From assembly GCA_025928375.1 (NCBI GenBank), contig JAICJP010000001.1:1-48192 (forward strand): 48,192 bases of DNA, given 5' to 3'. Below the pieces are notes generated by a model. It saw only the letters and a program-made list of their open reading frames with translations, was not told where the DNA came from and searched no databases. The stretch comes from Candidatus Sulfotelmatobacter sp. (GTDB taxonomy: Bacteria; Acidobacteriota; Terriglobia; Terriglobales; Acidobacteriaceae). Position numbers and translations under genes: made by a program. Shown here in pieces: positions 31,067 to 34,753 of this stretch (position 1 is its first letter; every line of letters begins with the position of its first letter).

Positions 31067-31984
31067 GTGTTCTCATCCGTGCAGGAAGTCAGCGACGGTC
31101 TACGAAGCGCGGGCTACATCGCCGATCCCGTTGCTATCACGACCATTTTTCTTGCCGGTTCATTGCACAGGCCGATTCTTTCTGAAGGGCCTGCTGGCAG
31201 CGGCAAAACCCAGCTTGCGTACGCCGTAGCGCAAGCCGCCAATACCAGCGTGGAGCGCCTGCAATGCTACGAGGGAATCGGCGAAGACAAGGCCATCGGG
31301 ACGTTTGATGAATCTCTGCAAAGGCTGTGCGTAGAGCTGAAAGCCAAGGCCTCGGGGGTCGATTGGGAGCTGCTAAAGAACGAATTACACGGCGAGCAGT
31401 TCTTCAGCGCCGGACCCCTTCTTCGCGCACTGCAATACGAACGGCCTTGTGTCCTGCTCATCGACGAGCTCGACAAGGTAGACCATGCGTTCGAGGCAAT
31501 GCTGTTAGAGCTCCTGAGCGTGTGGCAGTTGAGTATACCCAAGCTCGGAACAATCCAGGCGAAGAGCATTCCCTTCGTTGTGCTCACATCGAACGAAGAA
31601 AGACGAATTGGAGATCCGCTTCGCCGGCGCAGTTTCTATTTGCGCGTGGAGCACCCCACCGCGGAACGAGAAGCGGAAATCGTTGCCATGAGGACTCCCG
31701 ATGCTGTCGCCGATTTCCATGCAGGAATGGCAGGTCTGGCGAAGGCGTTGCGTGGCTGGAGCCTGGAAAAGCCGCCTTCTGTCTCAGAGATTCTCGATCT
31801 CGCCCAGGCGCTCAGAATTCTCGGCGCTGAAAAAGTCACTGCCGAGATGAGAGACACTCTCCTGCCGCTGTTGGCCAAGACCGAAGCGGACCGCCGCAAG
31901 TTGCTATTGCGAGATGGCTTCGCCAGCCTCGTCTACGATGCACAGCAATACGCGGCGCAAAGCCTGGAAGGGAGCGCTGTATGA
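31067..31984 (+). CDS. MoxR-like AAA+ ATPase (AAA_5-type)
   Basis: GTG start follows AGGAG. Walker A is GPAGSGKT, Walker B is VLLIDELDK, sensor-1-like is VVLTSNE, followed by Arg-rich DPLRRRSF. Confidence 0.8.
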
Positions 31985-32499
31985 CAAAGTTCTTCTCATT
32001 GGCGTTCTTGTTGCTCGTAGCTACCGATCTCTCTGCCCAATCATGCAAATCAGGTCATCCCCCAGACCGTCGTGAAGCCGAATACTACATCTCCGTGTAT
32101 GCCCGGCACTACCACGTGCCTGTTCTCCTCGTACGCGCGATTATCGAGCGGGAATCGAACTGGCGGGCTTGTGCAGTCTCAGCAAAGGGCGCCAAGGGGT
32201 TGATGCAGCTTATGCCAGCGACCGCCCACCGATTAGGTGTCACGGACAGCTGCAACATCAACCAAAACATCTCGGGCGGAGTGCGCTATCTGGCCTGGCT
32301 GATGCGCCTGTTTCATAACGATCTCAGGCTTGTTGCCGCCGGTTACTACGCGGGTGAGGACATCGTTGCTCGCCGCGGCCTCTCCTACCACAACCCAGAT
32401 GTCGTGTCGTATGTGGCGAGAATCAGAGCCACTTATGTCTTGCAAGCCGGTGTTGCGGACGATCCTGAAAAGCCTACTTCGAAGAGAGTTATGCGATGA
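31981..32499 (+). CDS. Lytic transglycosylase (SLT domain; VirB1-like), secreted
   Basis: ATGA overlap with the upstream gene. Signal peptide present. SLT motifs are ERESNW (catalytic Glu), GLMQLMP and AGYYAG. Confidence 0.85.
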
Positions 32500-33422
32500 A
32501 AATTCGGACGAGTTTGGTGCATCTCACAGGGCTTTGCTTCCTGACCTACGGAGGACTGGCGCAGAACGAACCACCGCAAGCGCACATCGTCAGTCTCACT
32601 CTAGATCCGCAAATCGTTACGGTGTTGCACCTGCACCCGGGCTTCGTCAGCTCGGTGCGACTGCCGGAGGAGGTCAGCTCGGTCGTCCTGGGCGATCCTG
32701 CGGCGTTTAGAGGTGAGCATTCGGAAGCTGAGCCACGCCTAGTTTTCTTCAAACCTGCGAATCCAAAACCGGGCAAGAGCAACGCCCTCATCACCACGCG
32801 CAGCGGTCGCGAAGTTTCATTGACTTTAGTCAGCGATGGCGCTTCGGCGCACCCCGAGGCGGTCGACTACGTACTGGAATACCAGCCGCAGCGTAGCTTT
32901 CTGATTTCCTCGGTATACCCGACTGTTCTGATCGGCGATACCAAGAGTCTGGGTAGCGAAAGGCCAGCGAGTCCAAGTGACTCCCCGAAGCCTGATGGCG
33001 ACGAGCGGTGGCAGCCCCGCCAGCAATTGGCGACGCCCCTTGTCTGGCACGGCAAACAGCTGCGGGTGGCAGTCGGACGAACGGAGGAAAAAGGCTCGGA
33101 CATGACTGTCGCATTTAGCGTGGTAAATGCGTCATCGGGAACCGTTGAATTGCTGCCGCCGCAGGTGCAGCTGTCTGGGACAGCGAAGCAAAAGCACCAC
33201 AAGGCGATCAAGGCCGAACCGGTAGCGGTCAAAGACTATCGAATGACCTCGCGACGTCTGCCACCGGGAGCAACGACCGAAGGCGCAGTAGTTTTCGAGC
33301 GGCCAGCCTTCAAGGAGTCTCGGGAGCGATTGGTGCTCCAGATCGCTCAAGCAGAGGAAGTCGACCGGCCGGTTTTAGTGCCGATTGCATTTGTGGCTCC
33401 AGTGAAAGGAGCAGCGAAATGA
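32496..33422 (+). CDS. VirB9/TrbG/TraN-like outer-membrane core protein
   Basis: ATGA overlap and a signal peptide. The N-domain pattern V..V.LGDPAAF....E..LVFFKP....KSNALITT.SGREVSLTLV resembles the VirB9 N-domain. The C-domain AFSVVNASSGTVELLPP...GAVVFERP...LVLQI resembles the TraN/DUF4138-type beta domain. Confidence 0.6.
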   Translation: MKIRTSLVHLTGLCFLTYGGLAQNEPPQAHIVSLTLDPQIVTVLHLHPGFVSSVRLPEEVSSVVLGDPAAFRGEHSEAEPRLVFFKPANPKPGKSNALITTRSGREVSLTLVSDGASAHPEAVDYVLEYQPQRSFLISSVYPTVLIGDTKSLGSERPASPSDSPKPDGDERWQPRQQLATPLVWHGKQLRVAVGRTEEKGSDMTVAFSVVNASSGTVELLPPQVQLSGTAKQKHHKAIKAEPVAVKDYRMTSRRLPPGATTEGAVVFERPAFKESRERLVLQIAQAEEVDRPVLVPIAFVAPVKGAAK

Positions 33423-34753
33423 TCCACCCCAACGGACACGATCCCTCAACCGCGACCATTCCCGCACCCGCTCCGAGTGAGGGCATCAAAACCCCTCCGG
33501 AGCTGCCGACCACTTACCAACAGCCCATCGATATTGCAACCAGAGCCAAACTCAGAGCTCGACAACAATTTCAGCAGAACCGGTTCGTCATCATCGGCGC
33601 GGGCGCACTTGTTGTAGCCTTGCTGATTTTTGTCGCCACGTCCATGCCGCATAAGAGTCCGACGCAAAAGACGAAGCTTGGAACAGCTGCGGTAAAAGAA
33701 GACCAGACGCAAACCGCGAATACTTCGGTAGATCGAAGCCTCTTTCCTATCACAGATTCAGGGAAACCCACAGCAAAAGAAGCGCACGAGGGATTTCTGA
33801 ACGAGAAAGACCTGGAGCGTTCTGTTACTCGGCGGTCTCACCCGAGTTCCATTCAGGCTGCGCCATCGAACGCGCCGGGAACTCTCGGATCCATACCACC
33901 TTTCGGTCCGGATCAGCAGGGATGGCAGGCGCCCCCGTATCAAGCCGGCACGGCCGCCGCTGGGGCCGACGGGAGCGATCTCGGAAAGGCTGAACGCGAT
34001 GCAATGGAGAAGTCGCCATTGGTTTACGTCCGAAACACTTCCGCCTCGAAAGCCGATTCTGGAGAAAGGCCAAGTATAGCGACGCAAGAGATCGGTCTCG
34101 GGCTAGCTACAGGCACTCGATTGCGCGCTCGCCTTGAATCCGCTGCCAGCACCGCGGTGCGTGCCCCGGTTTTGGCGGTCATCGAATACACCTACGAACG
34201 GGACGGACAAATCATTGTTCCCGCTGGGGCGAAAGCGGTGGGGCGCATACAAGAAGCGGACCGGTCGGGGTATGTCCGCGTTCAATTTGAGTCCCTGATG
34301 ATGCCGGATGGCGCAACTGTTCCAATCCAGGCGGTCGCGACCGACCTGGACCTGCGCCCGTTGAAAGGTAAAGTCGAAGGCAAAAATACGGGCAAGAACG
34401 TCCTCGTCAGATCGCTGTCGGGGATCGGGGAGGCAGGTGCGCTATTGCTGGGACGGGGCAGCCTGGGGCAGCCCTTGAGCGAGTCGGACCTAATGCGAGA
34501 GCGAGTGAGTAACAACATCGGCGAGGCCTCAGATGAGGAAATATCCCGAATGGCAATCACCTCGCGCATCGTGGTCACCGTTTCTGCCGACACTCCGATC
34601 TACGTTGTTTTGGAACAGACGACAAAAGTCGCTTCAGCGTCGGGGTCGTCAAATGCTCGCAGCTCGCAGTCGCTGAACACCAACGCAGAGGAACTTCGGC
34701 AATTGCTGCAATTGAAGCGAGAATTGAATCAGTCGAGTTCAGCACCCCAATGA
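33419..34753 (+). CDS. VirB10/TrbI-like protein
   Basis: ATGA overlap. Architecture is N-terminal cytoplasmic tail, one TM (FVIIGAGALVVALLIFVA), a Pro/Ala-rich linker, then a TrbI-type C-domain (GTRLRARLESA...VLAVIE...IIVPAGAKAVGRI...VQFESLMMPDGATVPI...LKGKVEG). Confidence 0.7.
   Translation: MIHPNGHDPSTATIPAPAPSEGIKTPPELPTTYQQPIDIATRAKLRARQQFQQNRFVIIGAGALVVALLIFVATSMPHKSPTQKTKLGTAAVKEDQTQTANTSVDRSLFPITDSGKPTAKEAHEGFLNEKDLERSVTRRSHPSSIQAAPSNAPGTLGSIPPFGPDQQGWQAPPYQAGTAAAGADGSDLGKAERDAMEKSPLVYVRNTSASKADSGERPSIATQEIGLGLATGTRLRARLESAASTAVRAPVLAVIEYTYERDGQIIVPAGAKAVGRIQEADRSGYVRVQFESLMMPDGATVPIQAVATDLDLRPLKGKVEGKNTGKNVLVRSLSGIGEAGALLLGRGSLGQPLSESDLMRERVSNNIGEASDEEISRMAITSRIVVTVSADTPIYVVLEQTTKVASASGSSNARSSQSLNTNAEELRQLLQLKRELNQSSSAPQ

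Follow-up and report, generated by a model that had tools for sequence, protein, structure and literature searches.

A MoxR-class ATPase gene coupled to type IV secretion core genes in a probably truncated integrative element of Candidatus Sulfotelmatobacter

Described systems and the four-gene cassette

Type IV secretion systems (T4SSs) of the VirB/D4 and F types have a core comprising proteins of the VirB9/TrwF/TraK/DotH/CagX and VirB10/TrwE/TraB series together with VirB1. CoxD, NorQ and CbbQ belong to the MoxR class of AAA+ ATPases and act with a VWA partner (CoxE, NorD and CbbO) in the maturation or remodeling of metalloenzymes, and ICEclc and ICEHin1056 exemplify types of integrative and conjugative element (ICE) that integrate at tRNA genes using tyrosine integrases. 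Here, we analyze a four-gene cassette at positions 31067–34753 of a 48,192-nt stretch of DNA from Candidatus Sulfotelmatobacter sp. (assembly GCA_025928375.1, contig JAICJP010000001.1, forward strand; hereafter the window, to which all coordinates refer), in which a gene for a MoxR-class ATPase precedes genes for T4SS envelope proteins. The cassette is probably the stump of a truncated ICE, in itself an ordinary outcome. The family to which it belongs is apparently an undescribed T4SS variant, and its unusual trait is a conserved MoxR ATPase that has no VWA partner and is translationally coupled to the outer-membrane core genes.

The cassette consists of four intact open reading frames (ORFs) on the forward strand, encoding a CoxD/NorQ-like, MoxR-class AAA+ ATPase of 305 residues (31067–31984), a VirB1-like lytic transglycosylase of 172 residues with a signal peptide (31981–32499), a VirB9/CagX-like outer-membrane core protein of 308 residues, also with a signal peptide (32496–33422), and a VirB10/TrbI-like protein of 444 residues (33419–34753). 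The ATPase gene starts with GTG and is preceded by an AGGAG Shine-Dalgarno sequence. All three junctions are ATGA stop/start overlaps (at 31981, 32496 and 33419), and by a crude start-codon rule at least 39 of 71 related loci share the 4-bp overlaps and the gene lengths. A preliminary description of the window had placed the four ORFs and their overlaps correctly and had deduced translational coupling, which holds; the four-gene unit is real and is conserved among relatives. A scan for promoters and terminators returned nothing exceeding chance, and no RNA runs containing the cassette were found.

In comparison with the VirB/D4- and F-type systems, the 308-residue protein shares the VirB9 fold, the 444-residue protein shares the VirB10 layout and has a TrbI match just under the cutoff, an SLT transglycosylase is encoded alongside, and relatives of the locus also have VirB3/TraL-, VirB4/TraC- and VirB8-like genes downstream. 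Unlike in those systems, the acidobacterial genes are arranged in two modules around a cargo hotspot with the MoxR ATPase gene first, the sequence similarity is marginal, and none of VirB7, VirB11 or VirD4 was identified. With ICEclc and ICEHin1056 the locus and its relatives share an integrase and excisionase by a tRNA 3′ end, polymorphic insertion, variable cargo and the presence of several copies per genome; they differ in the type of T4SS, and the window copy differs further in having neither attR nor a second T4SS module.

The ATPase matches Pfam AAA (2.6e-9) and AAA_5 (9.3e-9) and carries Walker A (GPAGSGKT) and Walker B (LLIDELD) motifs. Its full-length match to the NCBIfam MadB family AAA-type ATPase (NF047784; 3e-66) scores 223.6 bits against a cutoff of 475 bits, which points to a relative of that family and not a member; the MadB proteins met in full-text literature were unrelated (a lantibiotic dehydratase, malonyl-ACP decarboxylase and human disease). 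A tblastn search of a plasmid collection returned CoxD-type MoxR ATPases at 40–43% identity and no close relative (all <60%). Among them, a gene of plasmid pHCG3 of A. carboxidovorans is 41.5% identical over 89% of the length, and is recognized as coxD because it comes after coxMSL and before a VWA gene and an XdhC gene. The sole match in IMG/VR was partial (65%), at a contig end. The AlphaFold model is poor (predicted local distance difference test, pLDDT, of 57); the top Foldseek matches in the PDB are nonetheless NorQ and CbbQ. Together, these results place the ATPase in the MoxR class (CoxD/NorQ/CbbQ). Unlike CoxD, NorQ and CbbQ, it has neither a VWA partner nor a molybdo-, haem- or Rubisco client gene nearby, and its neighbors are T4SS envelope genes. 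The preliminary description had noted the missing partner, and no VWA match was found among the cassette proteins, the proteins of the second module of relatives (d1–d7, see below), a 453-residue ORF at the d8 position or the VirB8-like ORF. No paper linking MoxR proteins with type IV secretion appeared among the top full-text literature results, and a MoxR-class ATPase in this position is unprecedented in the T4SS literature searched.

The three envelope proteins are related to described components to varying degrees. The 172-residue protein matches Pfam SLT at 1.1e-20. The 308-residue protein has no match of its own to Pfam CagX (PF03524); its family comprises 532 representatives at 50% clustering, and among 44 diverse members 18 match CagX at E≤0.01 (best 1.7e-7) and two match DotH/IcmK. 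An AlphaFold model built on the family alignment (pLDDT 82) has two beta-sandwich domains (29–130 and 185–297) with a disordered linker between them, and the seven best PDB matches found with Foldseek are all VirB9 homologues (E 3.7e-10 to 5.7e-6), including F TraK (3.7e-10), Legionella DotH, pED208 TraK, Xanthomonas VirB9 and R388 TrwF; TrwF aligns with the N-terminal domain at a template modelling score of 0.71–0.72, and CagX follows at rank 10. The model thus predicts a VirB9 fold of two beta-sandwich domains for this signal-peptide-bearing protein. The 444-residue protein matches Pfam TrbI at 1.1e-7 over profile positions 2–184 of 188, with 32.3 bits against a 35-bit cutoff, and NCBIfam VirB10 at 1.3e-4; TrbI is also the sole family matched among its relatives (8 of 29, best 6.3e-10). 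Read from its sequence, it has the bitopic layout of VirB10, namely an N-terminal tail, one transmembrane helix (RFVIIGAGALVVALLIFVATSM, 55–76), a Pro-rich linker (77–225) and a C-terminal TrbI domain (229–400), and this layout is kept in the family alignments. PDB sequence searches with the VirB9-like and VirB10-like profiles gave nothing significant, and no VirB9-like relative was found in the plasmid collection.

The MoxR-type, VirB1-like, VirB9-like and VirB10-like identities given in the preliminary description are upheld by AAA/AAA_5, SLT, the VirB9 fold and the VirB10 layout with its sub-cutoff TrbI match, respectively. The Pfam check that it proposed came out unevenly, with matches to SLT and AAA_5, a TrbI match below the cutoff and no CagX match for the 308-residue protein itself. 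A reading of the cassette as a defense system was dropped, PADLOC models giving no meaningful match for any of the four proteins. As a separate observation, DUF2381, a paralogous family of Myxococcus, gives a sub-threshold match (6.7e-6) to the C-terminal domain of the VirB9-like protein and is also matched in 13 of 44 relatives. This likeness, and the presence of Myxococcus plasmids among those carrying relatives of the family's VirB4-like protein, hint that DUF2381 proteins are perhaps VirB9-like.

The element family in Terriglobales

Homologues of the ATPase at 82–100% identity number more than 8000 in metagenomes, and the named organisms among them are Terriglobales, Sulfotelmatobacter and Angelobacter. 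In two metagenome contexts a tRNA gene is followed, in order, by genes for an integrase, a small protein, the AAA+ ATPase, the SLT protein and the VirB9-like and VirB10-like proteins, and then, in both, by genes for proteins of 123, 220, 151 and 110 residues, an 878-residue P-loop_TraG protein, and proteins of 269, 272 and at least 398 residues. A scan of one genome per species recovered the integrase–excisionase–AAA–SLT–B9–B10 block at 80 loci, nearly all in Acidobacteriota. Across related loci the four-gene block is constant and the integrases vary, and the tRNA gene lies ~1.7 kb upstream of the cassette and is of ten different types.

A second T4SS module follows in 37 loci, after a gap of 286–9224 bp behind the VirB10-like gene. 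It encodes a 110-residue TraL/VirB3-like protein, an 878-residue VirB4/TraC-like ATPase (d5, matching P-loop_TraG at 4e-17, CagE_TrbE_VirB and TraC_F_IV) and a 258-residue, weakly VirB8-like protein. As the gap between the modules varies widely, the stretch between them is taken to be a cargo hotspot. Between clades, the cassette ATPase and d1–d5 keep 80–86% identity (80–84% for the ATPase), and the SLT, VirB9-like, VirB10-like and d6 proteins keep 57–66%. Being as conserved as the VirB4-like protein, the ATPase behaves like a core cytoplasmic component. The nearest plasmid relatives of the VirB4-like protein belong to the TraC family of Thermus, Meiothermus and Myxococcus, at 24–27% identity, and an IMG/VR scan with it returned nothing; the T4SS of the family is only distantly related to those that have been studied.

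In this family, which is very common in Terriglobales, the T4SS of intact elements is accordingly encoded in two parts, the AAA+ ATPase and the VirB1-, VirB9- and VirB10-like proteins on the left and, beyond variable cargo, the VirB3/TraL-, VirB4/TraC- and VirB8-like proteins with several unassigned membrane proteins on the right. Homology suggests an outer-membrane core composed of the VirB9-like and VirB10-like proteins, a transglycosylase that breaches the cell wall and a MoxR-type ATPase that acts in the cytoplasm as a remodeling or assembly factor of the transfer machine; the ATPase might work on the envelope-spanning core, remodeling or assembling it through, for instance, the cytoplasmic tail of the VirB10-like protein. 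We put forward, tentatively, that the MoxR/CoxD-like ATPase is a required, built-in part of an undescribed and very abundant acidobacterial conjugation system, operating without a VWA partner, and that the window copy is a dead remnant of it. If the ATPase is needed for transfer, it would constitute a new accessory motor or chaperone and a fourth kind of ATPase in T4SS biology, and would provide a handle on gene flow in a phylum in which conjugation is essentially unstudied. The family comprises thousands of protein clusters, occurs in several copies per genome and appears to be a dominant conjugative element of soil Terriglobales.

Several further features of the family were observed. Single genomes hold 3–5 copies of the element at different tRNA genes (L004, L036 and L058 in OY970205.1; L014, L019, L027, L037 and L063 in CAVRWN01), a multiplicity that would favor recombination between copies. 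About ten related loci, including L020, L027, L032, L049, L069, L075, L076 and L079, have a truncated or missing ATPase or VirB9-like gene, reflecting either real decay or indel errors in metagenome-assembled genomes from long reads. In the main clade with cargo (L014–L053), the left edge of the hotspot, after the VirB10-like stop codon, is marked by ~170 nt of conserved, hairpin-rich sequence, possibly a recombination site; in the short-gap elements L001, L058, L062, L063 and L083, a 37-nt palindromic motif (GTGAGATGCACCAAAGTCAAACATTTGTTCATCTCAC), possibly an operator, occurs twice upstream of d1. KaiC-like cargo genes occur in L011, L013, L032, L045 and L069, and their products are 27% identical to the chromosomal KaiC encoded near the tRNA-Glu gene of the window.

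Integration site, joint and competing readings

In the window, the integration target is a tRNA-Glu (UUC) gene at 29188–29265 on the forward strand (ARAGORN, Rfam). Abutting it on the reverse strand are genes for a 417-residue tyrosine integrase (29291–30544; Pfam Phage_integrase, 2.7e-21) and an excisionase-like HTH_17 protein (30545–30832, 95 residues as called from L084, with the maximal ORF extending to 30898; 1.4e-7), which together place a site-specific recombinase directly beside an attachment site. The preliminary description, which called the operon an orphan, mentioned none of these three genes, and they explain its appearance: it belongs to a tRNA-integrated ICE and has lost, or is at least separated from, the other half. 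An integrase 60% identical to that of the window occupies the same tRNA-Glu site in L042, beside a complete element in which the second module follows after 8.6 kb. To the left of tRNA-Glu lie housekeeping genes for glycyl-tRNA synthetase, pyruvate phosphate dikinase, a KaiC-like protein and a histidine kinase.

Contigs encoding the identical KaiC protein are of two types, one bearing the island and the other having an empty tRNA-Glu site. The empty-site contigs L096–L099 match the window at 99.6–99.8% up to 29282 and then diverge, and the attL junction is at 29266–29282, where the sequence common to island-free conspecific contigs ends. In these contigs the 3′ end of tRNA-Glu is followed by the right flank ACTTTATCAATCACTTGCGG / ACTTTATCAATCACTTGCGGAATTGCTGG and by genes for a response regulator, a fatty-acid desaturase and a radical SAM protein. 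The island is polymorphic within one species, with L084–L092 carrying it and L096–L099 and L114 having the empty site; sample ERZ27321142 holds both forms, with coverage of 5.1 for the joint-spanning contig (see below) and 13.9 for the shared/empty-site contig. The window contains no repeat of the tRNA-Glu 3′ end, the expected signature of attR, at up to three mismatches, which leaves the element with one att site there; nor does the right flank of the empty site occur in the window or in the next 8.7 kb, a span of 27 kb rightward of the tRNA.

To the right of the cassette, homology to the closest elements stops at the VirB10-like stop codon. The next 537 bp (34754–35290) are the last that are linked to the element and are probably leftover cargo; they include the 3′ fragment of an alpha/beta-hydrolase-like gene (34963–35290, reverse strand), a label given by reading the sequence, with no family model matched and no Pfam hit. 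A novel joint, recognized as a rearrangement breakpoint by comparison with L130 and L152, follows at 35290|35291, 537 bp past the VirB10-like stop, and adjoins the 5′ fragment (~165 codons) of a beta-propeller gene (35291–35787, reverse strand) that is full-length in L130 and L152. A chimeric ORF of 274 residues spans the joint, with the hydrolase fragment forming its C-terminal third. The comparison loci came from a metagenome scan with the neighboring M28 peptidase, which gave 69 loci including L130 and L152; the exact peptidase variant of the window was present in two short contigs only. Both L130 (97% nucleotide identity) and L152 (99%) align with the window between 38402 or 37633 and 35291, and beyond that point they continue together into the full-length, 304-residue beta-propeller gene, which in L130 is followed by genes for a cytochrome c, a TIM barrel protein, a pyrroloquinoline quinone (PQQ) dehydrogenase and a 3-keto-disaccharide hydrolase. 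The window, L180 and other island contigs instead have at 35290 the C-terminal hydrolase fragment and then the VirB10-like gene. This switch at the joint identifies the 274-residue ORF as a fusion scar and bears out the earlier remark that the DNA after 34753 is degenerate. The two gene fragments lie on the same strand, as a simple deletion would give. The joint is present in at least seven contigs from different samples (L180 from JGI at 99.1% and six others at 99.9–99.98% identity to the window), which points to one recent lineage, and the near-identical contigs (99.9–99.98%), retrieved from NCBI, ENA and Logan via the exact VirB10-like protein, show the same gene order.

The preliminary description also held that the window has no other part of a T4SS, and this agrees with a tblastn search using the downstream T4SS proteins of the family itself, which detected no second-module protein encoded there. 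Overlapping contigs extend ~8.7 kb past the window (MacB-like gene, GreA fragment, cupin, MOSC, aspartyl protease, Trans_reg_C/Tricorn and WD40), and no T4SS genes were found in the resulting ~22 kb after the cassette. A VirB4-family ATPase is encoded in the same element in 37 related loci and is lacking from the DNA read for the window copy.

The reading that we consider the most probable is that the window copy is a truncated ICE stump, the first of two possibilities raised in the preliminary description (a decayed ICE), which is now favored by the tRNA-Glu, integrase and excisionase genes upstream, the VirB4 module of relatives and the joint 537 bp downstream. Further support comes from the empty site of conspecific contigs, whose right flank the window lacks, and from pseudogenes in the vicinity (see below). 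A rearrangement, most simply a deletion, would have cut the element 537 bp past the VirB10-like gene and fused the tail of a cargo hydrolase gene to the head of a chromosomal beta-propeller gene, leaving attL, the integrase, the excisionase and the left module, without the VirB4 module and without attR. Lacking these two, the stump would be able neither to form a transfer channel nor to excise; the recency of the event would be the likeliest reason for the four intact ORFs. As no overlap between L130 and the empty-site flank contigs was found, deletion, inversion and translocation are indistinguishable.

Several points weigh against truncation or against the wider interpretation. The right end of the island is never seen. 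Intact ICEs, too, can have a gene disrupted where cargo begins or ends, and a simple deletion would remove the response-regulator flank; related species conserve that flank, and this genome may still carry it. The preliminary description had raised the case of homologous cassettes always embedded in complete conjugation loci: a second module is present in 37, and in 22 of 59 related loci it is not reached within ~9.9 kb downstream, showing that large gaps exist. No relaxase or coupling protein was seen in relatives within flanks of up to 10 kb, which end within ~2 kb past the VirB8-like gene, and for this reason it is the integrase, the tRNA sites and the T4SS genes that justify the label ICE. 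Finally, the role of the ATPase, assistance in assembly or remodeling, is one that we infer.

Some of these observations also fit a rather unlikely alternative, in which the element is intact, with more than 22 kb of mosaic cargo and with its VirB4 module and attR beyond the DNA read, and the cassette seems orphaned because of where the window ends. The inter-module gap is a widely varying cargo hotspot that exceeds ~9.9 kb in the same 22 of 59 loci, several of which, with no visible second module, share cargo with loci that have one; the absence of the empty-site flank over 27 kb right of the tRNA is expected if the island continues, and the coverages in ERZ27321142 are compatible with a strain-specific right-hand region. 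Truncation is favored over an intact element because the largest gap observed in relatives is only 9.2 kb, because the DNA right of the joint is chromosome-like, with metabolic genes of chromosomal type and its first 3.1 kb syntenic with the chromosomal PQQ-dehydrogenase locus of L130, because 22 kb hold no second-module remnant, and because the response-regulator flank is linked to element genes in no contig (24 contigs with the exact response-regulator protein were read, and in none of the ten contexts shown do element genes adjoin it).

The second possibility raised in the preliminary description, a self-contained envelope module made up of a MoxR ATPase and the VirB9/VirB10 channel that it services, functioning without the other T4SS parts, is very improbable, be it as a system in its own right or as a remnant domesticated under selection. 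In its favor are the intactness and translational coupling of the four ORFs, the strong conservation of the ATPase and the occurrence of the exact VirB10-like protein in 125 indexed blocks of a public sequence collection. Against it, in every locus with visible context the cassette adjoins an integrase and a tRNA gene as the integrase-proximal part of a longer element, an attR that could bound a four-gene island is missing from the first 10 kb in all 50 related loci with an upstream tRNA, cassette genes are broken in about ten related loci (some perhaps through long-read assembly errors), and the copies bearing the joint are 99.1–99.98% identical to the window, so that their intactness is uninformative on selection. 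Whether the element is truncated or intact, the cassette is not a self-contained system.

Neighboring genes and repeats

The right side of the window carries, after the 274-residue ORF, genes for the M28 peptidase, a Gfo/Idh/MocA oxidoreductase, an RraA-like protein and an enolase-superfamily protein, followed by a frameshifted MFS gene and a split MacB-like gene. The MFS transporter pseudogene (44068–45320, reverse strand) is broken by a frameshift into pieces of 145 and 286 residues, the MacB-like permease pseudogene (46427–48192, forward strand) is split into pieces of 147 and 541 residues, and a GreA N-terminal fragment of 56 residues lies just outside the window.

In the conspecific L152 (99%), a 1.26-kb insertion (1865–3123) lies between the peptidase and propeller genes, at the equivalent of window positions 35771–35775. 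It resembles an insertion sequence, with a 5-bp overlap reminiscent of a target-site duplication, and contains 16 stop codons in the strand and frame tried. A dispersed repeat of ~270 bp occurs in ORF-poor DNA at 39399–39665 and 45555–45825 (79% identical), with a further piece at 39194–39316 and a related piece just past the window end (L093, 1116–1237); it is possibly like a miniature inverted-repeat transposable element and could mediate rearrangements.

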